In this document: positions 6,721 to 57,954 of the stretch, piece after piece | How the letters are laid out: each line of letters starts with the position of its first letter | Position numbering within the stretch: the first letter of the stretch is position 1 | Assembly: GCA_046262115.1 (NCBI GenBank) | Contig: JBHENJ010000080.1 | Coordinates: forward strand, 7,941-71,940 | Length of the DNA stretch: 64,000 bases | Source: Candidatus Limnocylindria bacterium | GTDB lineage: Bacteria > Chloroflexota > Limnocylindria > QHBO01 | Direction of reading: 5' to 3' | Notes under the pieces: model-generated | The model's database searches: none | Told to the model about the DNA's origin: nothing | What the model saw: the letters and a program-made list of their open reading frames with translations, nothing else | Position numbers and translations under genes: made by a program

Positions 6721-6727
6721 GCGACCG

Positions 6728-7860: not shown

Positions 7861-7870
7861 GCGGAGCGAG

Positions 7871-8416: not shown

Positions 8417-8427
8417 GAGGAACAGAC

Positions 8428-8829: not shown

Positions 8830-8913
8830 CCGGCAAGAAGCGCCCGGAGCTGCTATACTCGCCGCTCCCTAGCCGTGCCGTGTCCGCCTTTCCACCTGCC
8901 CCAGGAGACCTGA

Positions 8914-12321
<3,408 letters not shown>

Positions 12322-12378
12322 CCACCCACGCGCGCGCGACCCGCCCGCGGTCTGTCCTCACAGGAGTCTTGAGAGCTG

Positions 12379-16788
<4,410 letters not shown>

Positions 16789-40062: not shown

Positions 40063-40073
40063 CACGGCGAGTG

Positions 40074-42649: not shown

Positions 42650-42667
42650 CGAGCGGAGGACGAGCGG

Positions 42668-44497
42668 ATGTGCGGCATCGTCGGGTACGTCGGACCGCGG
42701 GAGGCCGCGCCGATCGTCCTCGATGGCCTGAAGCGGCTCGAGTACCGCGGGTACGACTCGGCCGGCATCGCGCTGCGGACGATGGACGGCGGCGTCTTCG
42801 TCGAGAAGCGCGCCGGCAAGCTGTCGAACCTCACCGATCACCTCAACGGAGGCGCCCCCGCCGGAACGCTCGGCATCGGCCACACCCGCTGGGCGACGCA
42901 CGGCCGCCCGACCGACACGAATGCGCATCCGCACCAGGATTGCACCGGCGACCTGGCCCTGATCCACAACGGCATCATCGAGAACTACCGCGAGCTCGGC
43001 GACCGTCTCCGGGCATCCGGGCATCGATTCGTCTCGGAGACCGATACCGAGACGCTCGTCCACCTCATCGAGGAGCGCTACACCGGCGACCTGGCCGGCG
43101 CCGTCCGCTCTGCGCTTGCCGACGTGGATGGCGCGTACGCCATCGGCGTCATGCACACCGACCACCCCAACCGGATCGTCGGCGCACGCCGCAACGTGCC
43201 GCTCATCGTCGGGCTCGGTGACGGCGAGGGATTCCTTGCCAGCGACGTCCCGGCGATCCTCCCGCACACCAAGCGTGTCGTGATCCTCCAGGAGGGCGAC
43301 GTCGCCGACATCACGCCGGATGGCGTCAGCATCACGGGCCTCGACGGCGAGGTGGTGCGTCGCGACGTCACGGAGATTCGCTGGTCGATCGAGGCCGCGG
43401 AGAAGGGCGGCTTCGCGCACTTCATGCAGAAGGAGATCTACGAGCAGCCGCACGCCATCCAGGAGGCGCTCCGCGGCCGACTCAATGCAGCCGGCGAGCT
43501 GCGCCTTCCCGAGCTCAACGCGATCGACGACAAGCTGCGACGCGTCGAGCGCATCTACGTCGTCGGCTGCGGGACGGCGGGATACGCCGCGCAGGTCGGC
43601 GCCATCCTCCTCCAGGACTGGGCGCGCCTGCCGGCGGTCGGGCAGGTCGGGAGCGAGATGCGCTACTCGCCGCCTCCGATCGACGACCGGACGCTCGTGG
43701 TGAGCGTCACACAGTCCGGCGAGACGGCCGACACGCTCGCCCCGCACAAGATGGCCAAGGAGGCGGGCGCCACCGTGATCGCCGTCACCAACGTCGTCGG
43801 CAGCGCCGTGACCCGGGAGGCCGATGCGGTCTGCTTCCTCCAGGCCGGCCCCGAGATATCGGTCGTGGCGACCAAGACGTTCGTCACGCAGGTCGTCCTG
43901 CTGACCATGATCGCGCTCCATATCGCCCGCCTCCGCGGAACGCTGAAGCCGCGGGAGCTGCGCACCTACGGGCTCGCGCTCCGCGCCCTCCCGGGCGCCG
44001 CCGCGGAGGCCCTGGGACGTGTCAACCCGGTCAAGAAGCTCGCCCAGCGCTATGCCCATGCCAGCGACTTCCTCTTCATCGGTCGCGGCGTGGGCTACCC
44101 GACCGCACTCGAGGGCGCGCTCAAGCTGAAGGAAGTGAGCTACGTCCACGCCGAGGGCTACGCCGCCGGCGAGCTCAAGCACGGCCCGATCGCGCTGCTG
44201 CAGGCCGACGTGCCGCTGGTGGCGATCGCCACTAGCGCAGCCACGTACGACAAGCTACTGAGCAACGTCAGCGAGGTGCGCGCTCGCGAGGCGCCGGTGA
44301 TCGCGGTCGCGACCGATGGCGACGACCAGATCGGCCGCTACGCGAGCGACGTCCTGTTCGTGCCGGAAACGGTCGAGGCGGTGTCTCCGGTGATCGCGAT
44401 CCTCCCGCTCCAGCTCCTCGCGTATGAGATCGCGGTGATCCGTGGCACAGACGTCGACCAGCCGCGCAACCTCGCCAAGTCGGTCACCGTCGAATAG
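42668..44497 (+). CDS. glmS: Glutamine--fructose-6-phosphate aminotransferase
   Basis: MCGIVGYVG N-terminal nucleophile, two SIS domains, C-terminal ...KSVTVE; only an 18-nt gap to glmM (no room for a glmS ribozyme). Confidence 0.97.
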   Translation: MCGIVGYVGPREAAPIVLDGLKRLEYRGYDSAGIALRTMDGGVFVEKRAGKLSNLTDHLNGGAPAGTLGIGHTRWATHGRPTDTNAHPHQDCTGDLALIHNGIIENYRELGDRLRASGHRFVSETDTETLVHLIEERYTGDLAGAVRSALADVDGAYAIGVMHTDHPNRIVGARRNVPLIVGLGDGEGFLASDVPAILPHTKRVVILQEGDVADITPDGVSITGLDGEVVRRDVTEIRWSIEAAEKGGFAHFMQKEIYEQPHAIQEALRGRLNAAGELRLPELNAIDDKLRRVERIYVVGCGTAGYAAQVGAILLQDWARLPAVGQVGSEMRYSPPPIDDRTLVVSVTQSGETADTLAPHKMAKEAGATVIAVTNVVGSAVTREADAVCFLQAGPEISVVATKTFVTQVVLLTMIALHIARLRGTLKPRELRTYGLALRALPGAAAEALGRVNPVKKLAQRYAHASDFLFIGRGVGYPTALEGALKLKEVSYVHAEGYAAGELKHGPIALLQADVPLVAIATSAATYDKLLSNVSEVRAREAPVIAVATDGDDQIGRYASDVLFVPETVEAVSPVIAILPLQLLAYEIAVIRGTDVDQPRNLAKSVTVE

Positions 44498-44528
44498 CGC
44501 CCGCCGCCGTCGCCGTTCCGGCCGCCCG

Positions 44529-44906
44529 ATGAGCCGTCACGAGATCGGGATCGACGTCGTCGACATCGAGCGCATCCGCGGCACGCTCACGCGTCACCGG
44601 GAGCGCTTCCGGTGCCGCGTGCTGACCCCGCGCGAGGATCGGTACTGCGGCGCACGCGTCGAGCGAGTCGCAGGCAGGTGGGCGGCGAAGGAGGCCGTGA
44701 GCAAGGTCCTCGGGCTCGGCGTTCGCGGAGTCGGCTGGCGTGAGATCGAGGTGCTCCCGAACCGGGCCGGGCAGCCGCAGGTCGCGCTGCACGCGCGCGC
44801 GGCGGCTCGTGCCGAGGTTCTGCGGCTGGCCGAGGTCACCGTCTCCATCTCGCACGAGCGCGGGACCGCGGTGGCCGTGGCGATCGCGCACCGAGACGAG
44901 CCGTGA
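44529..44906 (+). CDS. acpS: Holo-[acyl-carrier-protein] synthase
   Basis: GIDVVDIERI...EAVSKVLGLG...SISHERG. Confidence 0.85.
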   Translation: MSRHEIGIDVVDIERIRGTLTRHRERFRCRVLTPREDRYCGARVERVAGRWAAKEAVSKVLGLGVRGVGWREIEVLPNRAGQPQVALHARAAARAEVLRLAEVTVSISHERGTAVAVAIAHRDEP

Positions 44907-45889
44907 TGACGAGCGCGATCGACGAGCGCGCGGGTGCCGCCGCCGCTGCGGAGGCCGACGCGTGGGACGAGCGCGGCCCACGCGCCGGCGTAGGGCCTCT
45001 CGATCCCGCTTGGGTGGCGGAGCAGCTCCCCGCACGGCCCGACAGCGCGCACAAGGGAACGTTCGGACGGGTCCTGATCGTCGCAGGGTCGACTCGCTAT
45101 CCCGGTGCCGGCATGCTCACCGGGCTGGGCGCTGCGCGGGCGGGCGCCGGCCTGGTCTGTCTTGCGGCGCCGGAGTCGCTGCAGCGACAGCTCGCAGCGT
45201 CGATCCCGGAGCTGGCATGGCTGCCGCTCCCCGAGGAGGCGCCGGGCGTGAGTGCGCCCGGCGGCTGGCGGCGCATCGCGGAGGAGGCCGATCGCTACGA
45301 TGCCATCGTGGTGGGGCCAGGCCTCGGCAACCTCGCGACCACGCGGCGTCGCGCGCGCCGCCTGCTGAAGGAGCTCGTCCGGCCGCTGGTCGTCGACGCC
45401 GATGGGCTCAACGCACTCGCGGAGGACGCGCACTGGTGGACCGGGCTGCGCGGCCCCGCCGTCCTCACGCCGCACCCGGGCGAATTCGCTCGGTTGGCGC
45501 GCGTCCCGCTGGATGTCATCACGGACAGCGACGACGCGCGGCTCGACCTCGCCGAACAGGCCGCGGCGGCATGGGATCGAGTGGTTGTCCTCAAGGGCGC
45601 GCGGACGGTCGTCGCAGCGCCCGATGGCCGGGTCCGGGTCTCGCACGTCGCGACGCCGGCGCTCGCCACCGCGGGGAGCGGCGACGTCCTCGCCGGCGCG
45701 ATCGGCGCGCTCGTTGCCGCCGGACTCGAGCCGTTCACGGCGGCGTGCTGCGGTGTCGCCGTCCACGCTGCGGCGGGCCAGATCTGCGAGGAGCGCATCG
45801 GGCGCGTGGGCGTTCTCGCGTCCGACATCGCGGCAACGCTCCCGGCGGCGGTCACATCGGTGCGGGCGTCCGCGGGGCAGGGCCAGTGA
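44903..45889 (+). CDS. nnr: ADP-dependent (S)-NAD(P)H-hydrate dehydratase (YjeF C-terminal-type carbohydrate kinase fold)
   Basis: HKGTFGRVLIVAGSTRYPGAGMLTGLGAARAGAGLV...GSGDVLAGAIGAL. Confidence 0.8.
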   Translation: MMTSAIDERAGAAAAAEADAWDERGPRAGVGPLDPAWVAEQLPARPDSAHKGTFGRVLIVAGSTRYPGAGMLTGLGAARAGAGLVCLAAPESLQRQLAASIPELAWLPLPEEAPGVSAPGGWRRIAEEADRYDAIVVGPGLGNLATTRRRARRLLKELVRPLVVDADGLNALAEDAHWWTGLRGPAVLTPHPGEFARLARVPLDVITDSDDARLDLAEQAAAAWDRVVVLKGARTVVAAPDGRVRVSHVATPALATAGSGDVLAGAIGALVAAGLEPFTAACCGVAVHAAAGQICEERIGRVGVLASDIAATLPAAVTSVRASAGQGQ

Positions 45890-47100
45890 GCGCGGCGATC
45901 GTCGCATCCAGCTCTCGAAGCCGTCACCGCGCGTGGATCGAGGTGGACCTCGCCGCAGTCGCGAGGAACCTGGGTGTGCTCCGGCGGCTGGGTCGCGAAG
46001 GCCAGCAGGTCATCGGCGTCGTCAAGGCGAACGCCTACGGCCACGGTGACGTCGAAATCGCGCGAACGCTCGTCGGCGAGGGTGTCGATCGCCTCGCGGT
46101 CGCTACCGTCGACGAGGGGATCCGTCTTCGCCAGGCGGGGATCGACGCCCCCATCCTGGTTCTATTCGAGATGGATCGCGCCGAGGCCGCCCGTGCGGTG
46201 GCCGCGCGGCTGGAGGCGACGATCTTCACGGATCGCGGGGTCGCCGCGCTCTCGCATGCGGCTACCGCCCGCCGGACGGTCGCCGTTCACGTCAAGGTCG
46301 ACACCGGCCTCGGACGCCAGGGCGCGGACCCGGCCGACGCCCTCGCACTCGCCACGTCTGCAGTCTCGCGGCCCGAGATCGAACTGGCCGGGACGTACAC
46401 GCACCTGGCCGTGCCCGGCGAGGACGAGGCGTACACCGATCTGCAGCTGGTCCGATTTGGGCAGGTGCTCGACGCGCTCCGGGGCTCCGCGATCGACCCA
46501 GGGCTCGTCCACGTCTCTGGCACCGGCGGCGTGTTGTCCGGCGTCGGTGGATTCGCCGATGCCATCCGCCCGGGACTCGGCCTCTACGGCATGGCGCCGT
46601 CCTGGGCGAGTGCCGACGATATCGGCCTGCGCCCGGCGCTCAGTCTTCGCTCACTCCCACTGCGGATCTTCGATCTCGCCGGTGGCGAACCGATCGGCTA
46701 TGGCCTCCGCTTCCGTGCCGGCCGCCGCTCGCGGATCGCAACCCTGGGGATGGGTTACGCCGACGGCTGGCCGCGCGTCCACGCCAACAACGGTGTCGTC
46801 CTCGTACGAGGGAAGCGCGCGCCGATCGTGGGCGCCATCTCGATGGACGCGCTGACCGTCGACGTCACCGACGTCGACGGCGTTACCGAGGACGACGAGT
46901 TCGTCCTGATCGGGTCGCAGGATGGCGAACGGATCACGGCGGACGAGGTCGCCGCCCAGCGCCGCACGATCAACTACGAGGTCACGACGGCGCTCGGCAT
47001 CCGGCTCTCGCGCATGCCCCTCGCCTCCGGGCGCCGAGATGGGCCGATCGCCCGCGTGCCGTCGGCAGCGATTCCGGGTGCCGCGCATGGCGGAGTCTGA
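45886..47100 (+). CDS. alr: Alanine racemase
   Basis: PLP-site VVKANAYGHG, C-terminal domain; GTGA overlap with nnr; only the 3-prime part of the long ORF 44740-47100. Confidence 0.9.
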   Translation: MSAAIVASSSRSRHRAWIEVDLAAVARNLGVLRRLGREGQQVIGVVKANAYGHGDVEIARTLVGEGVDRLAVATVDEGIRLRQAGIDAPILVLFEMDRAEAARAVAARLEATIFTDRGVAALSHAATARRTVAVHVKVDTGLGRQGADPADALALATSAVSRPEIELAGTYTHLAVPGEDEAYTDLQLVRFGQVLDALRGSAIDPGLVHVSGTGGVLSGVGGFADAIRPGLGLYGMAPSWASADDIGLRPALSLRSLPLRIFDLAGGEPIGYGLRFRAGRRSRIATLGMGYADGWPRVHANNGVVLVRGKRAPIVGAISMDALTVDVTDVDGVTEDDEFVLIGSQDGERITADEVAAQRRTINYEVTTALGIRLSRMPLASGRRDGPIARVPSAAIPGAAHGGV

Positions 47101-47362
47101 GCGGGTGGAACCAGACGTCGGTGCGCTCGCCCGGGCGATCGAGCGGCGCGGTCTTGCCGCGACCGCGCTGCTCCTTCTCGATGCGCACCGCCCGTACCGA
47201 CCGCTCGTCGCTCACGCGGCGACGTTCCTTGCGCCGGTCCTGCGGCCGCTGGTGGGCGGCCCATTCGCGTCCGCGCGCGACCTCCTGAGCTCCGAGGAGA
47301 ACATCGACCGGCTGGTCGCATCACTCGAGTCGGGCCGCGCCGAGGGGCGCGCGGATGCCTGA
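47087..47362 (+). CDS. Hypothetical small protein (91 aa), first gene of the novel operon
   Basis: ATG 47087 overlaps the alr 3-prime end by 14 nt; G/C-rich third positions; no recognisable domain. Confidence 0.5.
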   Translation: MAESERVEPDVGALARAIERRGLAATALLLLDAHRPYRPLVAHAATFLAPVLRPLVGGPFASARDLLSSEENIDRLVASLESGRAEGRADA

Positions 47363-48203
47363 CCTCGGGGAGCTCGTCGGCGGCGTCGTACGCTTCCTCG
47401 GCGACTCGCTCTCGGCGTCGCGACTTGCCGTCGGCGTCGGTCCCACGCTGGCGCTCCTGACCGTGATGCTCGTGCTGCTCTATCTGCTTGCCCGGCCGAC
47501 TGCGCGGTGGCGCGGGCGCGACCTCGGCCGTCTCCAGGGCGTGGTGAGGACGATGGCGCTGGCCGCCGAATCCGGCGGCACCGCCTCCTTCTCCCTCGGA
47601 ACCGCGGGGGTCGTCCGTCCGGCGGCGGCCGTCGACCGACTGCAGACCCTCGCCGCGCTGCCGGTCCTCGGGCACGTCGCGAGCGCCGCGGCGCGCGGCG
47701 GCGTGCCGCTGATGGTGACCGCGAACGACGCCGTGGCGGTCGAGCTCGCGCGAGCTGTGCTCGACGAGGCGTTTGCCGCGACAAGCACCAGCGAGCGCGC
47801 TCGACGCGCGCGAGCGGAGCACGTGGGCGACGGCAGGGCAAGCGCCGCGGGTCGCTCGCTCGCGCGACCCGCCGGCGCGGGCAACACGACGCACGTGCTG
47901 GGTGGCCTCAGCGAGGAGGCGCCCGCGTTGCTCACCGGCGAGGTCGACGGTGCCGCGACGACGACGTTCGGGACCGCGACGCCCGCGGAGGCAGTGTGGG
48001 TCCTGCTCCTCGGACAGGGTGCGGTCATCGGCCCCGAGCTCTACAGCGCCGCGAGCGCGGTGCTCCCCGCGACGGACGAACGCGCCGCGGTCTTCGCCGT
48101 CAACCGTCTCATCTGGGTGGCGCTGGCGCTCCTGGCCGGCGGCTCGCTTCTCCGAGTGCTGGGCATCTTCGACGTCGCCGGCTTCGTCCTCGGGCGCAGC
48201 TGA
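47355..48203 (+). CDS. Hypothetical bitopic membrane protein (282 aa)
   Basis: ATG overlaps the upstream stop by 8 nt; TM helix near the N-terminus (PTLALLTVMLVLLYLLA) and another near the C-terminus; clear G/C third-position bias across the frame. Confidence 0.6.
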   Translation: MPDLGELVGGVVRFLGDSLSASRLAVGVGPTLALLTVMLVLLYLLARPTARWRGRDLGRLQGVVRTMALAAESGGTASFSLGTAGVVRPAAAVDRLQTLAALPVLGHVASAAARGGVPLMVTANDAVAVELARAVLDEAFAATSTSERARRARAEHVGDGRASAAGRSLARPAGAGNTTHVLGGLSEEAPALLTGEVDGAATTTFGTATPAEAVWVLLLGQGAVIGPELYSAASAVLPATDERAAVFAVNRLIWVALALLAGGSLLRVLGIFDVAGFVLGRS

Positions 48204-48209
48204 CCTTCG

Positions 48210-48824
48210 ATGCGGCGTGGGATCGTTCCTGCCCTGGTCATTGGTGCGGGGCTCGTCGTGCTGGTCGACTACCTCGTCGTCAACCCGAGCGTCGATGTCG
48301 TCGGCGGATACCTACTCAGCTACCTGATCGCGCTGGCGGCCGCAGCCGGCGTGGCCGGCGGTGTGGAGGTGGTCGCCGCCCAGGTCATCCACCTTCGTGA
48401 GCGACGCCGCGATCCGACCGCCGCGGTCGCGACACTGGTCGGGTTCCTGCTGGCCGTCGGGGCCGGCTTCTATCCGGGCTCCGCCGGCGCGTCCGATCCC
48501 GCGATGCGGTGGATCGTCGCCGCGATGCTGCTTCCCCTCGTCGCCTCACTCTTCTCGCTGCTCTTCTTCTTCATGCTCGCCGCCGTCTCGCGCGGACTTC
48601 GATTGCGCGGACGGGAGACGACCGTGATCGTGGCGGCCGCCGCGGCCATGCTGGTGCTGCTCCTTCCGCTGGGAGGTGACGTCGGGCGCTCGCTCGCCTC
48701 CGCTGCCGGCTGGACCCTGGACGTGCCGGTCGGTGCCGTCTTCCGCGGCCTTCTCATCGGTGTCGCGATCGCCACGTCGGTGGCGGCCGCAAGGACGCTG
48801 CTCACGCCGGCGGGGGAGGGGTGA
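48210..48824 (+). CDS. Hypothetical polytopic membrane protein (204 aa, about 5 TM)
   Basis: 6-nt gap from the upstream gene; hydrophobic throughout. Confidence 0.6.
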   Translation: MRRGIVPALVIGAGLVVLVDYLVVNPSVDVVGGYLLSYLIALAAAAGVAGGVEVVAAQVIHLRERRRDPTAAVATLVGFLLAVGAGFYPGSAGASDPAMRWIVAAMLLPLVASLFSLLFFFMLAAVSRGLRLRGRETTVIVAAAAAMLVLLLPLGGDVGRSLASAAGWTLDVPVGAVFRGLLIGVAIATSVAAARTLLTPAGEG

Positions 48825-49606
48825 ACCTCGCCGCGGTGCGGCTGGCGCTGCTCGCGGCGGTCGCCGGTGCCGTTCTCCTGACATCGGCCGGGACGTACCT
48901 GCCTCTGGGGGACCGCGGGCGGGCCGCCGCGGAGGATTTCCTCGGCGTCGTTGGTTCGCTGCCGGCCGGGTCGAGCGTCCTGGTCGCGTTCGACGCGGAC
49001 GCCGGCACCTATCCGGAGATCGTGTACGCCACCCGGAGCGTGATCCGCCGGTTCGAGCTCGCGCGGCACGAGATGGCGTTCGTGAGCTTCACGCCTGAAG
49101 GCAGGGCCCTCGCCGTCGGCGAGCTCGACCGCCTCAGTCGAGACGCAGACCTCGGTGACGCCCAGATCCGGGATCTCGGGTACCGCGCCGGGGCCGAGGC
49201 AGCGCTGGCGCGGTCCATCGGCGAGCTCGACGTCGCATCGTTCGATCTCATCCTCCTGATCGGCGGGATCGACCTCGGGCCGCGAGCGTGGGTCGAGCAG
49301 GTCCAGCCCAGGCTGTCCGACGAGGCGGAGCCGCAGATGGTGGCGATCGCACCATCGTTCCTGCTTCCCGAGCTCGAGCCCTACCGCGCGTCGGGCCAGC
49401 TCGCCGCGGTGCTCGACAATCCGCGTGACGCGCTTACGCTCGCGGGCGCAGCCGCGCCGGACGACGTCGACTCCGCTTTAAGGCTGCCGTCCGAGGCCGC
49501 GATCCTCGTCGGCCTGCTCGGCGCGCTCGGGATCCTCGTGGCGGCGTTGATCCGCACCGGGTCCGAACGCGTCGGCGTCCGGGGGAACCGGGGCGCCGGA
49601 CGGTGA
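48821..49606 (+). CDS. Hypothetical membrane-anchored protein (261 aa; N- and C-terminal TM helices, soluble middle)
   Basis: GTGA overlap with the upstream stop. Confidence 0.55.
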   Translation: MNLAAVRLALLAAVAGAVLLTSAGTYLPLGDRGRAAAEDFLGVVGSLPAGSSVLVAFDADAGTYPEIVYATRSVIRRFELARHEMAFVSFTPEGRALAVGELDRLSRDADLGDAQIRDLGYRAGAEAALARSIGELDVASFDLILLIGGIDLGPRAWVEQVQPRLSDEAEPQMVAIAPSFLLPELEPYRASGQLAAVLDNPRDALTLAGAAAPDDVDSALRLPSEAAILVGLLGALGILVAALIRTGSERVGVRGNRGAGR

Positions 49607-50247
49607 GCGGGTTCTTCGGCGACGACCTCGCGGGCACGCTCGGAACGTGGCTCGCGGCAGCGATCACGCTGTCCGTGTGGGCCTACCTGGTGGGCGAGCG
49701 CCGCGCCTTCGCGTACGCGCAGCACCTGCTCGCCGGGCTCCTCACAGGCTACGTCGTCGTGATCTCGATCCGCGAGGTGCTCGTTCCATTCTTCCTCGAC
49801 CCGCTGGTGCGTGATCCCCGCGGTCACGCCGCGCTGTGGCCGGCCATCCTCCTCGCGGGCGTCGTCGTCGTCGGCCGCTTCCTCCCCCGACCGCTCACGG
49901 CGATCCCCGTCTCGATCCTGGTGGGCGGGACCGCGGCGTTCGCGCTGGCCGGGGCGGTGGTCGGGACCCTCACCCCCCAGCTCGCCAAGGCCATCCTCCC
50001 CGGAGGTGGGAGCCTCCCGGCGCTGGTCGGCGGGGCGGTGTCGGTGGTCATCATGGCGCTCGTCGTCGTCAGCTTCCGCCACGGCGTCGCCGTCGACGGG
50101 TTCGCCGGGCGTGCGTCCGTGGCGGGACGATGGCTCCTCATGGCCGGGCTCGGCGGATGGTTCGGATTCATGCTGCTCGGCCGTCTCGTGCTGGTGATCG
50201 AGCGGATCGGCTTCCTGCTGTTCGAGTGGCTCAAGATAGGTCGATGA
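49603..50247 (+). CDS. Hypothetical polytopic membrane protein (214 aa, about 6 TM)
   Basis: GTGA overlap with the upstream stop. Confidence 0.55.
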   Translation: MSGFFGDDLAGTLGTWLAAAITLSVWAYLVGERRAFAYAQHLLAGLLTGYVVVISIREVLVPFFLDPLVRDPRGHAALWPAILLAGVVVVGRFLPRPLTAIPVSILVGGTAAFALAGAVVGTLTPQLAKAILPGGGSLPALVGGAVSVVIMALVVVSFRHGVAVDGFAGRASVAGRWLLMAGLGGWFGFMLLGRLVLVIERIGFLLFEWLKIGR

Positions 50248-51932
50248 CGCCTACTCCCGCTATCGCGCTGGCTATCGACCACGGGTCAACCTGGACCAAG
50301 GCGTCTGTGATCGGTCGGGTGGCGGGACGCTGGCATGTGGCTGCACACGTCAGCCAGCCGACGGCGTGGGGCGAGGACGAGCTGCTGCGCGCCCTCACCG
50401 CGCGTCTCGCGGCACGGGCCGACCGTCGCTGGACGAGCGCCGTCCCTGCCCTTGTCGGCCGGGCGTCGCGGATCGAATGTCACACGCCGGGACGACCGGG
50501 TCGCATCGGGCTCGCCGCGGTGTCGCGGGACATCTCCGGGCAGACGGCGCGGCGGGCGGCGGAATCGGCGGGCTGGGTCATCGCGGAGAGCGCGACGCTC
50601 GACGACGGCCGCTCGCTGGCCGAGCGTCTGACCGCGCTCCAGGCCGCGGACGTGGATGCGTGGCTCCTCGCTGGTGGCTTCGAGGGCGCGGACGCCGAGC
50701 AGGCGCTCGAGGTGGCCGGCCTCGTCGCTGCGGCTCGCGCGACGGGCACCGGCCCGGTGATCTGGGCAGGCGCCGCGAACCTGGCCGGCGAGGTCGAGGA
50801 GTTGTTCGAGCCCGGAGCGGTCACCGTCGTCGAGAACCCGAAGCCGAGCGCCGACGTGGAGCGGCCGCTCCAGCTCCGCGCGGGATTGGAAGGACTGCTC
50901 CGATTGATCGTGGAGCCGGAGGGCTCCCTGCACCTCGCGCCGACCGCCTTCGGACGCTCCGTCGGCACCGTCGGCCGCATCAGCGGCCTGAACGTGCTCG
51001 GCGTCGACCTCGGCGCGCGCTATGCGACGTGGGCGCTATGCGGGGAGCGCGGCGTCGAGACGCGCGTGCATGCCGAGGGCGGCCTCGGTTCGCCGGCGCT
51101 GGCCGCGCCCGCGATCGCGGGGCGCCTGTCACGCAGCCTGCCGCGCGACGTCGACGAGACGTCGGTCGCGGACACGCTTCAGAACATGCGGACTCGGCCC
51201 GCCGCGGTACCCCAGACGCAGGACGAGATCGCCGTCATGCACGCCGCGGCGCGACATCAGCTCGCGGCGCTGGTCGGCGCGAGTGCCGTGCAGGGAGTCG
51301 ACCTGCTGGTCGGCAGCGGACGCGCGATTGCGGCGTTTCCGCGGCCCGGGCAGGCCGCCGAGCTGCTCGTCGAGGGGATACGGCCGCTCGGCGTGACCCA
51401 GCTCGCGGTCGACGCCGCGGGCGTGCTTGCGCCGCTGGGCTCGCTAGACGACGAGGATCTGGGCGAAGGCGTCGGTGCGCTGCTCGGCGACGCGCTCGCC
51501 CCGCTGGGGACTGCCGTCATCACCCGGGGGGGCAACCCGGGCGACCCCGCGCTGCGCCTATGGCTGAGGCCACTGCCCGCTTCAGGCGGCCGAGGCGTCA
51601 ACGGCGCGGTGCCCGGCATCGGCCACGGCGGCGACGACGATCGCGTAGGCGCCGCGCTCGAGGTCCGCTACGGGCAGCTGCTCATCCTGCCGCTCCCCTA
51701 TGGGCGCCGCGCCGAGGTCCACCTCGAGCTCGAGCCCGGCGTGTCGCTGGGAGCCGCGCGTCGCAGCCGGGAGGTGCGGACGCGCGTCGTCGGTGGCGCG
51801 GTAGGTCTCATCGTCGACACACGCGACATGCCGATCGCGCTCCCGCGTCGTGCCGATGACCGCGAGGCGGTACTTACCTCCTGGCACGAGACGTTCGTTC
51901 GCGAGCACGCGACCGAGCTCCCGCTGCGATGA
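50244..51932 (+). CDS. ASKHA-superfamily ATPase-like protein, MutL/EutA-like (562 aa)
   Basis: N-terminus AIALAIDHGSTWTKASVIG carries the DxGSTxTK phosphate-1 motif typical of glutamate-mutase MutL / EutA-type ASKHA proteins; ATGA overlap with the upstream gene; the upstream part of the 698-aa ORF is antisense/overlapping noise. Confidence 0.6.
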   Translation: MTPTPAIALAIDHGSTWTKASVIGRVAGRWHVAAHVSQPTAWGEDELLRALTARLAARADRRWTSAVPALVGRASRIECHTPGRPGRIGLAAVSRDISGQTARRAAESAGWVIAESATLDDGRSLAERLTALQAADVDAWLLAGGFEGADAEQALEVAGLVAAARATGTGPVIWAGAANLAGEVEELFEPGAVTVVENPKPSADVERPLQLRAGLEGLLRLIVEPEGSLHLAPTAFGRSVGTVGRISGLNVLGVDLGARYATWALCGERGVETRVHAEGGLGSPALAAPAIAGRLSRSLPRDVDETSVADTLQNMRTRPAAVPQTQDEIAVMHAAARHQLAALVGASAVQGVDLLVGSGRAIAAFPRPGQAAELLVEGIRPLGVTQLAVDAAGVLAPLGSLDDEDLGEGVGALLGDALAPLGTAVITRGGNPGDPALRLWLRPLPASGGRGVNGAVPGIGHGGDDDRVGAALEVRYGQLLILPLPYGRRAEVHLELEPGVSLGAARRSREVRTRVVGGAVGLIVDTRDMPIALPRRADDREAVLTSWHETFVREHATELPLR

Positions 51933-52957
51933 CGTCTGCTGTCACCGCACTCGACCACCGCGTTCCGTTCCCACCCAGCGCGCGGATCCTCGTCGCGCCG
52001 GGCGACGAGGTCCGCGCCGACGACGCGCTCGCGACCAGCCGATCGCTCGGTGAGCCGATCGCGGTGCCGGTCGCGGCCCGGCTGCGGTGCGACGCGCGCG
52101 ACGGCGCTCGTCACCTCATCGGACGGCCCGGCGTGACCGTGCGGACGCGAGAGAAGCTCGCGGCGTGGCACGGCCGCGAGGTGCGCAGTCCCGTGGACGG
52201 CCTGCTGATCGGGTACTCGCGGACCGATGGCGTTGCGCTCCTCGCGCCGTTCGGCGGCGAGACAGCCATCGTCGGTCACGTGCGCGGGACCGTCACGGCG
52301 GTCGAGCCGTCCAGCGTCGTCGTCTCGGTGCCGGCGGCGCGCATCGGCGGCGTGCACGCCAGCGGGGACGCAGTCCACGGGGAGCTGATGATCGGCGTGC
52401 GGAGCCCGGCCGACGAGTTGCGTGCTGGCCAGGTGGACGTGTCGGCCACGGGGCGGATCCTTGTGGGCGGGTCGCGCGCATCGGCCGAAACACTCGCGCG
52501 TGCACGGGCGATGGGAATCGCTGGGATCGTCCTCGGGGGCATCCTCGACAAGGAGCTGCGCGACTTCACGGCGATACAGGAACGCCGCGAGAAGATGGGC
52601 GGCCTGACCGGCTCGTTCGCGTTGCTGCTCGTCGAGGGGTACGGCAAGGTCGCGCTCGACCCCGGGCTGTTCGCATGGCTGAGCGACCATCAGGGACACG
52701 AAGCCAGCCTCTTCGCCGGCGAGGGCGTCCTCTATGTGTACGACGCCGCGCCTCCGCCCCCGCGCCGCGTGCCGGCGCACGACGGCGATCGCGTGGTGAT
52801 CCACCGCCGGCCACACCAGGGCAGCAGCGGGCGCGTCGAGCGGGTCTTCGATCAGGTCCACGCGGCGGCGTCCGGGTTGCTGGCGCGACATGCCGTCGTC
52901 GCGCTGGAGGACGGAACCCGTGCGGTCATGCCGCTCGCCAACCTCGAGGCCACGTAG
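51929..52957 (+). CDS. Hypothetical protein (342 aa) with an N-terminal barrel-sandwich-hybrid-like segment and a C-terminal KOW-like motif
   Basis: ATGA overlap with the upstream gene; ARILVAPGDEVRADDAL (hybrid-motif-like) and GDRVVIHRRPHQGSSGRVERV (KOW-like). Confidence 0.55.
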   Translation: MTSAVTALDHRVPFPPSARILVAPGDEVRADDALATSRSLGEPIAVPVAARLRCDARDGARHLIGRPGVTVRTREKLAAWHGREVRSPVDGLLIGYSRTDGVALLAPFGGETAIVGHVRGTVTAVEPSSVVVSVPAARIGGVHASGDAVHGELMIGVRSPADELRAGQVDVSATGRILVGGSRASAETLARARAMGIAGIVLGGILDKELRDFTAIQERREKMGGLTGSFALLLVEGYGKVALDPGLFAWLSDHQGHEASLFAGEGVLYVYDAAPPPPRRVPAHDGDRVVIHRRPHQGSSGRVERVFDQVHAAASGLLARHAVVALEDGTRAVMPLANLEAT

Positions 52958-53016
52958 ACGTCGCGCTGAGAGGCATGCCCGGCGGGCGCAGCGGCGAGGC
53001 TTCCTATACTGCGAGC

Positions 53017-53514
53017 ATGGCTGTCCGCGATCATTCGGCGCCCGGCCGGTCCGTCACGCGCTCACCGGCGCAGACGTTCGATATCGGGCGGATGCTCGGT
53101 CGCCGTGCCCAGGCGGGCGACGTCCTGGCACTCAGCGGGCCGCTGGGCGCGGGTAAGACCATCTTCGCCAAGGGTGTCGCGGCCGGCCTCGGCGTGACGT
53201 CCGTAGTGAACAGTCCCACCTTCGTCCTGATGAACGAGCACCACGGCCGGCTCCCGCTGTTTCACGCCGACGTCTACCGGCTCTCGGATCCCGAAGAGGC
53301 GATCGCGGCCGGACTGCTCGACGAGGCGAACGCGCGCGGCGTCAGCGTGATCGAGTGGGCCGATCGCATCGAGCGTGAGCTCCCGGCCGACCGCCTGGAC
53401 GTGACGCTCCGGCCGCGCGAGGGCGACGAGCGGCTGATCTCGTGGCGCGCGCGCGGGCCGCGACATGCCCGACTGGCGGCCGCGCTGCACGACCTCGCGA
53501 CGCGAGCGGCGTGA
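53017..53514 (+). CDS. tsaE: tRNA threonylcarbamoyladenosine biosynthesis protein TsaE
   Basis: P-loop LSGPLGAGKTIFAKGVAAGLG...SPTFVL; 3-prime part of ORF 52087-53514. Confidence 0.85.
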   Translation: MAVRDHSAPGRSVTRSPAQTFDIGRMLGRRAQAGDVLALSGPLGAGKTIFAKGVAAGLGVTSVVNSPTFVLMNEHHGRLPLFHADVYRLSDPEEAIAAGLLDEANARGVSVIEWADRIERELPADRLDVTLRPREGDERLISWRARGPRHARLAAALHDLATRAA

Positions 53515-54167
53515 TCGTCGCGATCGAGAGCTCCTCGACCGATCTCTCCATCGCCGTCGCGGACCTGACCGGTGAGACCGGCAACGTCGATGGTTGGAGC
53601 GGCGGTCACCGCCATGCGCGCGAGCTGCTGCCGCGACTCGTGTCGCTGGTCGAGCGGCGCGGCGATCGGCTCGGCGACGCCGGCGCCGTGGTGATCGGGA
53701 CCGGACCCGGCTCGTTCACCGGGCTGCGCGTCGGGATGGGCGTGGCGAAGGGGATCGCGCTGGCCGTAGGCTGCTCGATCTTCGGGGTACCGAGCCTCGC
53801 GGCGTGGCTCATCGCCGAGCCCCACGCCGAGGCCGCGATCGGTCGCGCCGGCGTCGCCGAGGCGTACCTGCTGCTCCGAGACGGCCAGGCGCCGTCGGTC
53901 GTCGGCTTCGACGAGCTCCGCGCCGAGCGATTCGGCAGCGTGGTCGCGCCGGCGGACCTGATCGCTCAGCTCGGTCTGTCGCACGGTGTCCCGCCGTTCC
54001 GCGCGGGCGACGGGCTGGTCCGCGAGGGCGTCAGGCGGATGTCGGAAGCATCGAGCGGCGACGACGTCGAGACGCTCGAGCCGGCGTACCTGCGCCCGCC
54101 CCGCCGCACGGAGGCACACGATGGGGGCAGGGAGGCAGAGCATCGGGGCACGGTGGGATGCGCCTAA
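53511..54167 (+). CDS. tsaB: tRNA t6A biosynthesis protein TsaB
   Basis: VIVAIESSSTDLSIAVAD...GTGPGSFTGLRVGMGVAKGIA; GTGA overlap with tsaE. Confidence 0.85.
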   Translation: MIVAIESSSTDLSIAVADLTGETGNVDGWSGGHRHARELLPRLVSLVERRGDRLGDAGAVVIGTGPGSFTGLRVGMGVAKGIALAVGCSIFGVPSLAAWLIAEPHAEAAIGRAGVAEAYLLLRDGQAPSVVGFDELRAERFGSVVAPADLIAQLGLSHGVPPFRAGDGLVREGVRRMSEASSGDDVETLEPAYLRPPRRTEAHDGGREAEHRGTVGCA

Positions 54168-54673
54168 CGTCGGCCGCGCGAATCAACGACATGCAGATCG
54201 CGGATATCCCGGCCGTGCACGCGATCGAGCGTCGCTCGTTCAGCAGTCCATGGCCCGAGAACGCGTTCCACGAGGAGCTGACCCACAACCGGATGGCGCG
54301 CTACGTGGTGGCACGCGTCGGTGAAGAGATCGCGGCATACGCCGGGCTGTGGATGATCGTCGACGAGGGCCACATCACCACCTTCGGCGTGGATCCGGCA
54401 TGGCGGCGGCAGGGGATCGGTCAGCGGATGCTTCTGTACCTGGTGGATCTCAGCCGGGAGCTTCAGGCGACGCGCATGACACTCGAGGTGCGCGCGTCGA
54501 ACCAGGCCGCGCAGGCTCTGTACTGCAAGTTCGGGTTCGTCGAGACCGGCCGGCGGCCGCGCTACTACAGCGACGACGGCGAGGACGCCATCGTGATGGC
54601 CACACCGCTCCTCGACGATCCCGTCTTCCTCGAGCTCCTCGAGCTGCGACGCGCCACCATCGAGGACCGATGA
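54158..54673 (+). CDS. rimI: Ribosomal-protein-alanine N-acetyltransferase (GNAT)
   Basis: GNAT motif A (WRRQGIGQRML); alternative start at ATG 54191. Confidence 0.8.
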   Translation: MRLTSAARINDMQIADIPAVHAIERRSFSSPWPENAFHEELTHNRMARYVVARVGEEIAAYAGLWMIVDEGHITTFGVDPAWRRQGIGQRMLLYLVDLSRELQATRMTLEVRASNQAAQALYCKFGFVETGRRPRYYSDDGEDAIVMATPLLDDPVFLELLELRRATIEDR

Positions 54674-55710
54674 CCGGGCCGCGCATCCTCGCGATCGAGA
54701 CGAGCTGTGACGAGACGGGCGTTGCCGTCATCAGCGGCGGCCGCACGATCGAATCCAACGTTGTGGCGTCGCAGGTGGCGCTGCACGCTCAGACCGGCGG
54801 GATCGTCCCCGAGGTCGCGGCGCGACAGCAGCTCCGCTGGATCGTCCCGACGGTGCGACAGGCGCTGCATGAAGCCGGGACTGAGTGGTCCGCAATCGAT
54901 GCGGTGGCCGTCACATACGGCCCGGGGCTGATCGGTTCGCTCCTCGTGGGCGTCAACGTGGCAAAGACGCTGGCCGCGGCCCAGGGCCTGCCGCTCGTCG
55001 CCGTCAACCACATCGAGGGTCACATCTACGCCAACTGGTTGACCGATGAGGACGGGACCGCCGGCCGCGAGCCGCCGTTCCCGCTGCTGTGCCTCGTCGT
55101 CTCGGGCGGGCACACCCAGCTGGTGCTGATGCACGACCACGGCCGATACCAGCTGCTGGGCCAGACCGTGGACGACGCGGCGGGCGGGGCCTTCGACAAG
55201 GTTGGTCGCCTGCTGGGCCTGCCGTATCCGGGCGGGCCCGCGATCAGCCGGGCCGCCGAGGGAGCACGTCCGGCGACCCGCTTCCCGAGGGCGCGCACGG
55301 CCGGTCGCTACGACTTCTCGTTCTCCGGGCTGAAGACCGCCGCGCTCCGGGAGATCACCGCGTATCGCGACCGCGGGGAGGGCATCCCTGTCGACGGGTT
55401 GGCGGCGGCGTTCGAGGACGCCGTCGTCGACGCGCTGGTGACCAAGACCGTGGCCGCCGCCCGCGACCGCGCGGTGGCGGCCGTGGCGCTCGGCGGCGGC
55501 GTCGCGGCCAACCGGGCGCTCCGCGCCGAGCTGGCGCGGCGGCTAGAAGGCCTGCCGCTGATCGTGCCGCCGCCGGAGCTGTGCACGGACAACGGCGCGA
55601 TGATCGGTGCGGCGGCGGCCTTCCGGATGACGGCGGGCGACCGCGCCGACCTCGACCTCGACGCGATCCCGAACCTCAGCCTCCCGTGGCTCGAGAGCGC
55701 CGCGGCGTGA
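54670..55710 (+). CDS. tsaD: tRNA N6-adenosine threonylcarbamoyltransferase TsaD
   Basis: ILAIETSCDETGVAVI..., HIEGHI, VVSGGHTQL, GGVAAN; ATGA overlap with rimI. Confidence 0.95.
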   Translation: MTGPRILAIETSCDETGVAVISGGRTIESNVVASQVALHAQTGGIVPEVAARQQLRWIVPTVRQALHEAGTEWSAIDAVAVTYGPGLIGSLLVGVNVAKTLAAAQGLPLVAVNHIEGHIYANWLTDEDGTAGREPPFPLLCLVVSGGHTQLVLMHDHGRYQLLGQTVDDAAGGAFDKVGRLLGLPYPGGPAISRAAEGARPATRFPRARTAGRYDFSFSGLKTAALREITAYRDRGEGIPVDGLAAAFEDAVVDALVTKTVAAARDRAVAAVALGGGVAANRALRAELARRLEGLPLIVPPPELCTDNGAMIGAAAAFRMTAGDRADLDLDAIPNLSLPWLESAAA

Positions 55711-56618
55711 TCCACCCCGCGCTCGCACCGGAGCGCCTCGCGCCGCCGACCCCGAGCCAGCTCCGCCGGCTGCTCGCCGGCGAGCGGCTCCGACCGCGGC
55801 GCTCGCTGTCGCAGAACTTCCTTACCGATCCGGAGGCGCTCGACGCCATCGTCCGCGCCGCCGACCTCGCACCCGGCGACGCCGTCGCCGAGGTCGGGCC
55901 GGGGCTCGGCGTCCTCACGCGCCGCCTCCTCGCGGCGGGGTGCGAGGTTGTGGCGGTCGAGCTCGACCCAAGACTCGCGGCGTACCTCCGACGCAAGCTG
56001 AAGGGCGTCGGTGGCTTTGATCTTATCGAGGCCGATGCGCTCACCGTGGCGGGCGAGGACGTCTTTCCGGGCCGCCGGTACAAGCTCGTCGCGAACATCC
56101 CGTACCACATCACGAGCCCGCTGCTGCATCGCTTCCTGGGCGGCGGCCACCCACCCGAGATCACCGTCCTGCTCGTCCAGCTCGAGGTCGCCGAGCGCGT
56201 CGCCGCTCCACCCGGCGCGATGAGCTACCTCTCGGTCTTCGTCCAGCATCTCGCCGAGGCGGAAATCGTGGCGAGGGTTCCCGCGGCCGCCTTCGAGCCT
56301 GCGCCGAAGGTCGACTCGGCGGTGCTCCGGCTCCGCCGACGCCCGGATCCCCTGATCGGGCCGCATCGTCGCGAAGCCTTCTACCGTCTCGTGCAGGCTG
56401 GGTTCCGCCAGCGCCGCAAGCAGATCCACAACGCCCTCTCCCGCGAGCTGCCGATCGACCGCAGGGAGCTCGATGCTGCGCTCGCGGCGTGCGCGATCGA
56501 CCAGGATCGGAGAGCGCAGACGCTGACGGTGCCGGAATGGGCATGCCTCGCCGAGCGCCTCAACGCGCGTCTCGACCGCCCCGCGCGCGGCGACCTGGGA
56601 CCGCCGCTCCGCGAGTGA
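55707..56618 (+). CDS. rsmA: 16S rRNA (adenine1518/1519-N6)-dimethyltransferase
   Basis: SLSQNFLTDPEALDAIV...AEVGPGLGVLT...VANIPYHITSPLL. Confidence 0.9.
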   Translation: MIHPALAPERLAPPTPSQLRRLLAGERLRPRRSLSQNFLTDPEALDAIVRAADLAPGDAVAEVGPGLGVLTRRLLAAGCEVVAVELDPRLAAYLRRKLKGVGGFDLIEADALTVAGEDVFPGRRYKLVANIPYHITSPLLHRFLGGGHPPEITVLLVQLEVAERVAAPPGAMSYLSVFVQHLAEAEIVARVPAAAFEPAPKVDSAVLRLRRRPDPLIGPHRREAFYRLVQAGFRQRRKQIHNALSRELPIDRRELDAALAACAIDQDRRAQTLTVPEWACLAERLNARLDRPARGDLGPPLRE

Positions 56619-57496
56619 TGTTCGCGCTCACCGTCGAGGCCCCGGCCAAGATCAACCTGTCGCTGGCAGTGACCGGGCGGCGGTCCGACGGCTATCACGA
56701 GCTCGCCGGCGTGATGGCGCTCATCGATCTGACGGACACGCTGACGCTGACGCCCGGCTGCTCGGGCCTGCGTGTCAACGCGCCGCCGAGCGAGGAGATC
56801 CCGGTGTCGCGCGCGGACAACCTCGCCTGGCGCGGCCTCGTCGCCGGGGCGGGCGGCGATCCCGACATCGCCTGCATGACGCTGGAGAAGCGGATCCCGA
56901 TGGGCGCGGGCCTCGGCGGCGGGTCGTCGGACGCCGGCGCGGGGTGGCGGCTTGGGCGCCGGCTCGCCGATCGTCCCGACGTGCCCACGGTCGACGAGCT
57001 GACAGGTGAGCTCGCCGGCATCGGTGCCGACGTCCCGTTCTTCGCAACGATGGAACCGGCTGCGTACGTGACGGGGATCGGCGAACGGGTTCGATCGGTC
57101 GCGCCTCGAGAAGCGTTGGTCGTTCTCGCGCTGCCGCGGTTCCGGCTCTCGACCGCCGCGGTGTTCGCCGAGCTGAGCCCGTCCGACTGGTCGGGGGAGG
57201 CACCGGACGCGCAGGCGACGCCGGGCTGGAACGACCTACTCGGCCCCGCGGCGCGTCTGCGACCCGAGCTCGACGACCTGCTGCGCGACATGCGGACGGT
57301 GGGCGCCGAGCCGCACCTGTCGGGCAGCGGGCCATGCTGCTTCGCCCTGACCGACGATCCCGATCGAGCAGCGGCCGTGGTCGCGGCGATGACCGCGCGA
57401 GGCGTATGTACCATGCAGACGAGGCTGCTGACTTCCGCGTACGAGATCGCGGAGTTGAGCGCCGAGCACGACACCGAGGAGCACGACGATGCGTGA
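56618..57496 (+). CDS. ispE: 4-diphosphocytidyl-2-C-methyl-D-erythritol kinase
   Basis: APAKINLSLAVTGRRSDGYHEL..., GHMP motif PMGAGLGGGSSDA. Confidence 0.9.
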   Translation: MFALTVEAPAKINLSLAVTGRRSDGYHELAGVMALIDLTDTLTLTPGCSGLRVNAPPSEEIPVSRADNLAWRGLVAGAGGDPDIACMTLEKRIPMGAGLGGGSSDAGAGWRLGRRLADRPDVPTVDELTGELAGIGADVPFFATMEPAAYVTGIGERVRSVAPREALVVLALPRFRLSTAAVFAELSPSDWSGEAPDAQATPGWNDLLGPAARLRPELDDLLRDMRTVGAEPHLSGSGPCCFALTDDPDRAAAVVAAMTARGVCTMQTRLLTSAYEIAELSAEHDTEEHDDA

Positions 57497-57875
57497 CGCG
57501 ATCCACACCGAGCGGGCGCCGGCCGCCATCGGCCCGTACAGCCAGGCCGTGCGCGCCGGAAACATGGTCTTCACGTCGGGGATGGGCGGCGTCGACCCGG
57601 CCACGCGCACGCTCGTCGCCGGGGGCGTCGCCGCCGAAACGGAGCGGGCGCTCCACAACCTGGCCGCCACCCTCGAGGCCGCCGGATCGAGCCTCGACCA
57701 CGTGGTCCGTGTCGGATTGTTCCTTGCCGACATGGCCGATTTCGCGGCCGTCAACGAGGTCTATCGGGGCTTCTTCGCGGAGCCCTTCCCGGCGCGCACG
57801 ACGGTCGCCGTACGGGAGCTCCCGGCGGGCCTGCACGTCGAGATCGACTGCATCGCGGTGGTCGCCGAAAGTTGA
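57489..57875 (+). CDS. ridA: RidA/YjgF-family reactive-intermediate deaminase
   Basis: AIGPYSQAVRAGNMVFTSG...LFLADMADFAAVNEVY...PARTTVAV. Confidence 0.9.
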   Translation: MRDAIHTERAPAAIGPYSQAVRAGNMVFTSGMGGVDPATRTLVAGGVAAETERALHNLAATLEAAGSSLDHVVRVGLFLADMADFAAVNEVYRGFFAEPFPARTTVAVRELPAGLHVEIDCIAVVAES

Positions 57876-57954
57876 CCCTCACACGCGGTCGCGTCTACCA
57901 TCGCCGCGAGCCAGAACTGGCTGACGTAACTCCTCCGAGGAGCATCTCACCGAC

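Follow-up and report, generated by a model that had tools for sequence, protein, structure and literature searches.

A long-form MutL-family ASKHA protein encoded with a recurring set of membrane-protein genes in Candidatus Limnocylindria and other bacteria

What does a protein named after glutamate mutase do in a region where genes for B12-dependent enzymes are not found? The question is raised by a gene, here called g5, within a stretch of 64,000 nt from a Candidatus Limnocylindria bacterium (Chloroflexota; assembly GCA_046262115.1, contig JBHENJ010000080.1, positions 7,941–71,940, forward strand), which is referred to below as the window. The gene occupies 50244–51932 (+), exactly the coordinates given in an original prediction made from the sequence alone, and encodes a MutL-family ASKHA (sugar-kinase/Hsp70/actin) ATPase of 562 aa that starts MTPTPAIALAIDHGSTWTKASVIG. 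An NCBI protein annotated as 'glutamate mutase L', from a Candidatus Limnocylindria metagenome-assembled genome (MAG), agrees with it at every residue (100% identity, full length). The g5 gene is the sixth of seven co-directional genes, g0–g6 (47087–52957, +), located between alr and tsaE; the same names are used for the gene products. The original prediction described g5 as an orphan embedded among membrane proteins, and indeed no B12 enzyme, eut or methylaspartate genes were found among the window open reading frames (ORFs) scanned, and the flanking genes encode membrane proteins as judged by hydropathy. Its further suggestion that g5 serves a membrane complex is strongly reinforced by the recurrence of the seven-gene module across phyla and by natural fusions of g5 with g6. 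We conclude that g5 is not a GlmL-type B12-mutase reactivase, and propose, at what we would call an even chance, that a new membrane complex of g0–g4 has in g5 and g6 an ATP-driven cytoplasmic unit that powers a transport or assembly step.

The Pfam database assigns g5 to a single family, MutL (PF13941), with an E-value of 2.2e-24 and 86.5 bits against a gathering threshold of 27 bits, and the resemblance is therefore not a matter of chance. At E<=10 the same scan returned MutL only, with no match to EutA (PF06277), BcrAD_BadFG, FtsA, PilM or MreB; membership of the EutA, BadF, FtsA or PilM families was ruled out on this ground, so that of the predicted MutL/EutA-like affiliation the MutL part stands and the EutA part does not. 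Sequence and profile searches of the PDB with g5 found no solved sequence homologue. Residues 6–24, AIALAIDHGSTWTKASVIG, the N-terminal stretch quoted in the original prediction, contain the phosphate-1 motif D12-H-G14-S-T-W-T18-K19, and the DxGSTxTK pattern recognized there is well founded, with D12, G14, S15, T18 and K19 invariant in 21 close homologues (52–73% identity). The phosphate-2 and adenosine motifs, for which a search downstream had been recommended, are both present, the former as VDLGARYAT at residues 254–262 (D255 and G257 invariant in the 21 homologues) and the latter as GSGR at residues 357–360 (G357 and G359 invariant). In a more distant alignment of 31 sequences, with identities down to 24%, D12, G14, D255, G257 and G359 are still invariant or nearly so.

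An AlphaFold2 model of g5 based on the 31-sequence alignment (predicted local distance difference test score, pLDDT, 89.7; predicted template modelling score, pTM, 0.90) has two beta-beta-beta-alpha lobes, the first starting at residue 7 (strands 7–13, 17–26 and 29–39, then a helix) and the second at residue 251 (strands 251–256, 260–267 and 270–277, then helices). A Rossmann-like alpha/beta insert lies at approximately residues 75–200, and a C-terminal beta-domain plus helix that is specific to the subfamily at about 419–553. The predicted structure thus has the duplicated RNaseH-like core expected of the superfamily to which the gene had been assigned, and the leading Foldseek matches in the PDB are all ASKHA proteins: PilM, acetophenone/acetone carboxylase subunits, Ppx/GppA, FtsA, type III pantothenate kinase, HgdC and DnaK. 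The template modelling (TM) scores of these comparisons are low (0.2–0.44) because of the extra domains. On the predicted structure, g5 is an ASKHA-fold protein with conserved nucleotide-binding motifs, and its features are best explained if it is an ASKHA ATPase of the MutL/hydantoinase-A branch that is catalytically competent and does not polymerise. The Limnocylindria subfamily has a partly remodelled Rossmann-like insert, in which residues 79–81 (window 50478–50486) are an invariant Cys79-His80-Thr81, the wider family having an (A)TTSAG motif; this clade also shows GGFEGA in place of the GGTDGG of the family. A weak Foldseek match to a photocobilin B12 domain appears at rank 45, and the B12-binding DxHxxG motif, considered as a candidate feature of the insert, is absent from the family consensus.

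The structural matches bring in the possibility, raised in the original prediction, that g5 is an actin-like scaffold, polymerising or oligomerising on the membrane in the manner of FtsA, PilM and MreB and organising the bitopic proteins g1 and g3. PilM and FtsA do give the best Foldseek E-values for g5 (1e-7 to 1e-5), both work with bitopic membrane proteins, and the bitopic proteins of the module have short cytoplasmic tails like those of PilN-type partners. However, TM-scores to PilM and FtsA are only 0.2–0.35, the inserts differ, the Pfam scan described above found none of the three families, and the module includes neither pilus nor divisome genes. The glutamate-mutase (MutL) group has moreover been placed among the members of the actin superfamily that do not form polymers (PMC5597319), and g5 carries a large Rossmann-like insert and a C-terminal domain and can be fused to a 375 aa partner. 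We therefore consider a scaffold quite improbable, and among the chaperone, motor and scaffold options an actin-like filament role is the least supported.

The name 'glutamate mutase L' raises the question of whether g5 could be a true GlmL-type reactivase. GlmL/MutL, an accessory protein of glutamate (methylaspartate) mutase, and Or-4, of ornithine degradation, share with g5 both PF13941 and an ASKHA core with a Rossmann-like insert, but g5 falls far below the cut-offs of the corresponding NCBIfam models, scoring 41.5 bits with TIGR01319 (cut-off 204), 38.7 with NF040745 GlmL (475) and 23.6 with NF040744 Or-4 (600). A canonical orthologue from an Eisenbacteria MAG (locus L051), which matches Pfam MutL over all 450 positions (E=1e-126), is also below these cut-offs, with 159.6, 223.7 and 209.9 bits, respectively, for the same three models; it has approximately 125 extra C-terminal residues beyond the MutL model. 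Relative to GlmL, the g5 subfamily is about 100–150 aa longer and has a conserved C-terminal domain with a GLIIDARGRPL motif. The full signature, GGxxGLIIDARGRPLxLP, is the best-conserved stretch of the whole family and sits in the C-terminal extension, outside the 450-position MutL model; in the window protein it reads GGAVGLIVDTRDMPIALP (residues 517–534), and D525, R527 and P530 do not vary. When 1.84 billion representative sequences were scanned with HMMER, there were 771 relatives of g5 at E<=1e-3, and among the best 150 of these nearly all of the full-length proteins are 530–680 aa long and align through the C-terminal extension.

Nor does the genetic context resemble that of GlmL. The g5 gene does not lie between mutase subunit genes but has as its partners g6 and usually four membrane-protein genes. 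B12 mutase subunit genes (glmS/glmE and oraS/oraE) were absent from the scanned genes of the window, from three loci with Pfam-annotated contexts (L001, L084 and L088) and from the recurring neighbour clusters of the 82 loci (L001–L082) included in an unsupervised clustering of neighbouring genes. It is conceivable that g5 serves, in trans, a B12-dependent mutase whose gene lies at a distance in the genome, in keeping with its NCBI name and its match to Pfam MutL; we regard this as highly improbable given that g5 is under every GlmL and Or-4 cut-off, has the additional conserved C-terminal domain and is linked to g6 and membrane-protein genes across phyla. Nor did a mutase turn up among the genes scanned in the 64-kb window or as a recurring neighbour in 80 related loci. 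MutL-family ASKHA ATPases are already known; what is new here is the long-form subfamily associated with a membrane module. This type prevails among the examined relatives of the protein and constitutes a subfamily of its own, associated with membrane proteins and not with B12 mutases, and the automatic name 'glutamate mutase L' is therefore misleading for thousands of genomes.

The soluble partner of g5 is encoded by the gene that follows it, g6 (51929–52957, +), whose product of 342 aa is composed of a barrel-sandwich hybrid, a swivelling beta/beta/alpha domain and a C-terminal KOW/SH3-like domain (AlphaFold2 model, pLDDT 90.5). Three independent proteins of about 1,000 aa (P0201, P0159 and P0176) are natural fusions in which MutL and its extension are followed by a complete g6 (BLASTP E-values of 2e-106, 3e-74 and 1e-32), and this Rosetta-stone evidence indicates, at the level of sequence, that g5 and g6 act as one unit. 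Clustered at 90% identity, the family of g6 falls into more than 3,000 groups, and its named members are called only 'hypothetical' or 'KOW domain-containing'. Its N-terminal barrel-sandwich hybrid has its best Foldseek match in Thermotoga maritima NusG (2xhc, E=1.4e-5), with the isolated domain 2 (2xha_A) at rank 20 (E=0.018), and homologues of g6 give Pfam matches to RnfC_N, Biotin_lipoyl and NQRA_N. The middle, swivelling domain is matched by AF_0055/UPF0107 (Foldseek E=5.3e-4) and more weakly by RraA and Bacillus stearothermophilus pyruvate kinase (2e28), the last of which we take to reflect the extra C-terminal domain of that enzyme, of the phosphoenolpyruvate-utiliser type. The C-terminal KOW region resembles Spt5 KOW domains (Foldseek E-values of 2e-3 to 4e-2) and NusG, and a profile search gave Spt5 at E=6e-4 and, more weakly, uL24; this domain apart, PDB profile searches with g1–g6 returned nothing significant.

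A covalent carrier role for g6, with a lipoyl- or biotinyl-lysine or with a phospho-histidine on the swivelling domain, was entertained and rejected. The invariant polar residues of the family are D207, E236 (in a TEGFG motif), R293, N338 and E340, and as there is no Lys, His or Cys among them g6 is unlikely to carry a covalently bound group. RnfC and NqrA are soluble proteins encoded beside membrane subunits. The same can be said of g6, in which both the N-terminal barrel-sandwich of RnfC and NqrA and the KOW of NusG and Spt5 recur as domain types, but it is without flavin, Fe-S (iron–sulfur) or NADH-binding domains and without a lipoyl- or biotinyl-lysine. An Rnf/Nqr-like complex, an idea suggested by the RnfC_N and NQRA_N matches of g6 and by g2 and g4 being proteins of about 200 aa with six transmembrane segments, was likewise rejected: g2 and g4 have no similarity to the Rnf or Nqr membrane subunits, none of 37 g2 orthologues matches the Rnf-Nqr Pfam family, and there is no homology between g2 and g4.

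The pairing of g5 with g6 is also pertinent to the other role suggested in the original prediction, that of an ATP-driven chaperone or reactivase. Here g5 and g6 would spend ATP in opening, assembling or repairing a membrane enzyme formed by g1–g4, much as GlmL, EutA and DdrA do for B12 enzymes. DdrA, the diol dehydratase reactivase, has an ASKHA core and a swivelling domain in one chain, a combination that recurs here except that the swivelling domain is in the separate partner g6 and not in g5. EutA and DdrA/PduG, reactivases of B12 lyases and dehydratases, are like g5 ASKHA ATPases that serve another protein complex, and g5 shares a family with GlmL, to which a chaperone role in reactivating glutamate mutase has been ascribed (PMC4682846); Anaerolineae, moreover, have NfeD/SPFH and PspA genes of membrane maintenance downstream of the module. 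Nevertheless, g5 differs from EutA and DdrA/PduG in having no EutA sequence match, no eut or pdu genes nearby and integral membrane proteins as its partners, and no cofactor-binding or catalytic signature was found in g1–g4 (using Pfam for g2 and PDB profiles for g1–g4). The strict 1:1 operon stoichiometry and the g5–g6 fusions would also seem more in keeping with a stable subunit than with a chaperone that binds transiently, and we consider this role improbable.

That the membrane-protein genes belong with g5 and g6 is apparent from a wider sample, in which a distant subfamily alignment was run against 185,579 species genomes to yield 80 loci; profile hidden Markov models (HMMs) of each component were then compared with the six-frame ORFs of these loci, and counts were taken over the 37 loci having at least 6.5 kb on either side of g5. 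All seven genes occur together in 24 of the 37, with g1–g4 present in 25, g6 (adjacent to g5) in 31 and g0 in 30. The loci belong to Anaerolineae, Thermoflexia, Chloroflexia, Armatimonadota (including Chthonomonas calidirosea), Bacillota, Cloacimonadota, Poribacteria, Eisenbacteria, Planctomycetota (Scalinduaceae and Pirellulales), TA06 and Gemmatimonadota, and the module recurs in about ten bacterial phyla, with no B12 enzyme nearby. A Limnocylindria relative that is 55% identical has the same seven genes in the same order between alr and tsaE. Chloroflexota have the order g0-g1-g2-g3-g4-g5-g6, whereas the order is g0-g5-g6-g1-g2-g3-g4 in Armatimonadota, Eisenbacteria, Planctomycetota and Gemmatimonadota; the gene set has been kept despite rearrangement, which argues for selection on the set. 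Independent gene calls with precomputed Pfam annotations also place MutL and DUF6754, the family of g1, in one operon in L084 and L088. No description of a seven-gene module of this kind was found in a body of 8 million open-access papers searched via the family identifiers.

In the window the seven genes are translationally coupled, with overlaps of 4–8 nt at g0/g1, g2/g3, g3/g4, g4/g5 and g5/g6, the sole exception being a 6 nt gap between g1 and g2, and no promoter-like or terminator-like sites were found within the module region. The first gene, g0 (47087–47362, +), encodes a 91 aa protein in which a conserved hydrophobic hairpin (consensus PAIxxLExxKPLxFxGSQ...P) precedes an LLEDRxNxExL helix; it has no match in Pfam, NCBIfam or PADLOC, and its end overlaps the start of g1 by 8 nt. 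The g1 product (47355–48203, +) is a DUF6754 protein with an alpha/beta domain of about 190 aa between two transmembrane segments, the Pfam match having E=2.3e-7 in the window and E=2e-113 in the Eisenbacteria orthologue; R55, E72, G74, G183, E188 and G226 are invariant. Basic residues cluster after the first transmembrane segment (3.6 Lys+Arg, against 1.2 before it), and the central domain is therefore predicted to be cytoplasmic. Outside the Chloroflexota, g1 has an extra N-terminal hydrophobic, signal-like segment followed by an acidic domain of about 100 aa that, from its sequence, is probably secreted and Fn3-like.

The g3 product (48821–49606, +) is also bitopic by hydropathy, with a transmembrane segment, an alpha/beta domain of about 200 aa, a second transmembrane segment and a basic tail. 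As the basic tail (3.5 Lys+Arg) sits after the second segment, the alpha/beta domain is predicted to be extracytoplasmic; it belongs to a protein with the conserved motif YPYLQSGQLxGL..GAAEYE, to which Anaerolineae orthologues add N-terminal cytoplasmic double zinc ribbons and long linkers. A comparison of g1 with g3 by hhalign (E=0.0016, probability 16%, 221 columns) suggests that the two are possibly distant paralogues of opposite topology. The remaining two proteins are polytopic by hydropathy, g2 (48210–48824, +; 204 aa) with about six transmembrane segments and g4 (49603–50247, +; 214 aa) with about five or six. No meaningful Pfam relative was found for g2, and PDB profile searches with g1–g4 gave no significant relative. 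The g4 gene overlaps g5 by 4 nt, the g5 start codon and the TGA stop of g4 forming ATGA. An anti-phage defence system was considered and ruled out, there being no match to PADLOC defence profiles among the seven window proteins or three canonical orthologues.

The conserved nucleotide-site motifs of g5, its link with g6 and the presence of four membrane-protein genes lead us to propose a model of ATP-driven lobe closure. In this model g5, with g6 as its obligate soluble partner, would have been recruited to a dedicated membrane complex as its nucleotide-driven unit on the cytoplasmic side; in this complex g0 would be a small hairpin protein, g1 would direct its DUF6754 domain towards the cytoplasm, g2 and g4 would be the polytopic subunits, and g3 would expose its domain on the outside. 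Binding of ATP in the cleft between the two RNaseH-like lobes of g5 would close the lobes. The C-terminal domain of g5 and then the multi-domain g6 would relay this motion to the DUF6754 domain that g1 exposes to the cytoplasm, a plausible docking site, and from there it would reach the polytopic subunits, resulting in transport or assembly at the cytoplasmic membrane. We infer both the docking of g5–g6 on g1–g4 and the direction in which energy is coupled; the support for this mechanism is much weaker than that for the link of g5 and g6 with the membrane-protein genes.

Several observations weigh against this proposal. We know of no transporter energised by an ASKHA ATPase that could serve as a precedent. 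The Pfam match of g5 is limited to residues 9–215, in the N-terminal half of the protein (model positions 2–196 of 450), and the window protein is a divergent member of its family in which the GGTDGG motif has degenerated to GGFEGA. Some loci are also incomplete: those of Bacillota hold only g0, g5 and g6, adjacent to each other, g5 stands alone in some Armatimonadota, and g6 stands alone in WOR-3/Hydrothermia, from which it is clear that the cytoplasmic unit is not always linked in cis to the membrane genes. In the WOR-3/Hydrothermia loci L083, L085 and L086 (7151–12350), g6 without g5 lies between genes for a TMEM260-like tetratricopeptide-repeat (TPR) glycosyltransferase and a DegT/DnrJ-type aminotransferase.

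A broader form of the proposal, to which we would lend only tentative credence, is that the seven genes represent a class of membrane machine that has not been recognised before and occurs in at least ten phyla, in which a hydantoinase/MutL-type ASKHA ATPase and its g6 adaptor power a four-subunit membrane complex. If this is true, the motor is neither an ABC, P-type, AAA+ nor rotary ATPase and would couple ATP to transport or envelope assembly in a new way, and most proteins annotated 'glutamate mutase L' would be unrelated to B12 chemistry. The entire system would be new should the motor model hold. The analysis in any case defines a widespread module of housekeeping type by its seven genes, by a signature motif and by natural fusions; its members have so far been 'hypothetical' or DUF6754 proteins, and it is found in phyla of poorly understood envelope biology such as Chloroflexota, Armatimonadota, Planctomycetota and the candidate phyla of the FCB group.

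The neighbours of the module bear on a different account, in which g5 and g6 perform chemistry rather than mechanical work. They would form a soluble ATP-dependent enzyme of the hydantoinase/carboxylase type acting on an amino-acid-related small molecule, with g0–g4 importing or exporting the substrate. The ASKHA subunits of hydantoinase A/oxoprolinase and of acetone and acetophenone carboxylases are top structural neighbours of g5 (5svc_B and 5l9w_b, E ~3e-7), there are weak Pfam matches to Hydantoinase_A and Hydant_A_N in g5 orthologues, and the swivelling domain of g6 is of the UPF0107 (AF_0055)/RraA kind. The genomic contexts in which the FCB-type module lies within gcvT-gcvH-gcvPA-gcvPB ... 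lplA operons, and in which that of Bacillota adjoins genes for a pyridoxal phosphate (PLP)-dependent enzyme and for peptidases of families C26, S58, M55 and M20, are consistent with such a role. But no locus contains a hydantoinase-B-type catalytic partner, the TM-scores to these enzymes are only about 0.25–0.3, g5 differs from them in its membrane-module context, and g6 offers no invariant His, Lys or Cys for a covalent group. The neighbours of the module are mostly housekeeping, amino-acid or envelope genes, and although gcvTHP, alr and peptidase genes are frequent among them there is no universal metabolic partner, the contexts in Chloroflexota being different. We consider this account unlikely, and continue to favour g5–g6 as the ATP-driven unit of a membrane complex.

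The FCB-type loci have the order gcvT-gcvH-gcvPA-gcvPB-(small membrane protein)-g0-g5-g6-g1-g2-g3-g4-lplA/lipB, followed by a gene for a TonB-dependent receptor; examples are L084 (3026–14646), L088 (3130–15232) and L051 (6404–17101), and L084 also has genes for ExbB, ExbD and TonB. Genes for gcvP are upstream of the module in 13 loci, and this context may signify a functional link to glycine/lipoyl metabolism or merely a shared operon history. In Bacillota, g0-g5-g6 have glmM, glmS and alr upstream and rimI and tsaD downstream, as in the window. Thus the Bacillota loci L031, L033 and L066, with glmM-glmS-alr upstream of g0-g5-g6, share the macro-synteny of the window (39091–47100 and 52950–59331), which in full is YbbR-domain gene-glmM-glmS-...-alr-[module]-tsaE-tsaB-rimI-tsaD-rsmA-ispE-glmU, and the position of the module between alr and the tsa genes is therefore conserved in two phyla. 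A further Bacillota locus, L038 (1527–12953), has two tandem pairs of MutL-like and barrel-sandwich genes (6258–8210 with 8167–9531, and 9959–11827 with 11769–12953), which adjoin genes for S58, M55 and M20 peptidases and a DUF4438 gene, without g1–g4 in cis.

Anaerolineae loci show two additional features. In 21 of them (e.g. L005, 8745–9161, and L012, 13026–13604) g6 is followed directly by a gene for a small protein, not present in the window, which starts with a transmembrane segment, continues with a linker rich in Pro and Thr and has near its C-terminus a 'PETG'-like motif with a hydrophobic segment and basic residues after it, an arrangement that resembles a sortase/exosortase sorting signal. 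Pairs of NfeD and SPFH/Band-7 genes, and PspA/IM30 genes, recur downstream of the module in four to six loci each (L016, 11943–13493; L015, 11044–11718).

The remainder of the window is a housekeeping region as judged by profile matches, with ispDF, the gene for ribosomal protein S3, rpoA, a YbbR-domain gene, glmM, glmS and alr before the module, and tsaE, tsaB, rimI, tsaD, rsmA, ispE, glmU, and genes for a CNNM transporter, a polyprenyl synthase and recO downstream; rpoB and rpoC are assigned from ORF size and position only. Immediately upstream of the module, the longest ORF at 44740–47100 (786 aa) is an artefact of high G+C content in which alanine racemase accounts for only the last ~390 residues (Pfam positions 402–759), and the upstream part probably overlaps the true acpS and nnrD-type genes, as in L001. 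Near the left end of the window, a gene for a PIN-domain protein (579–1631) lies just upstream of a fused ispD-ispF (1638–2840).

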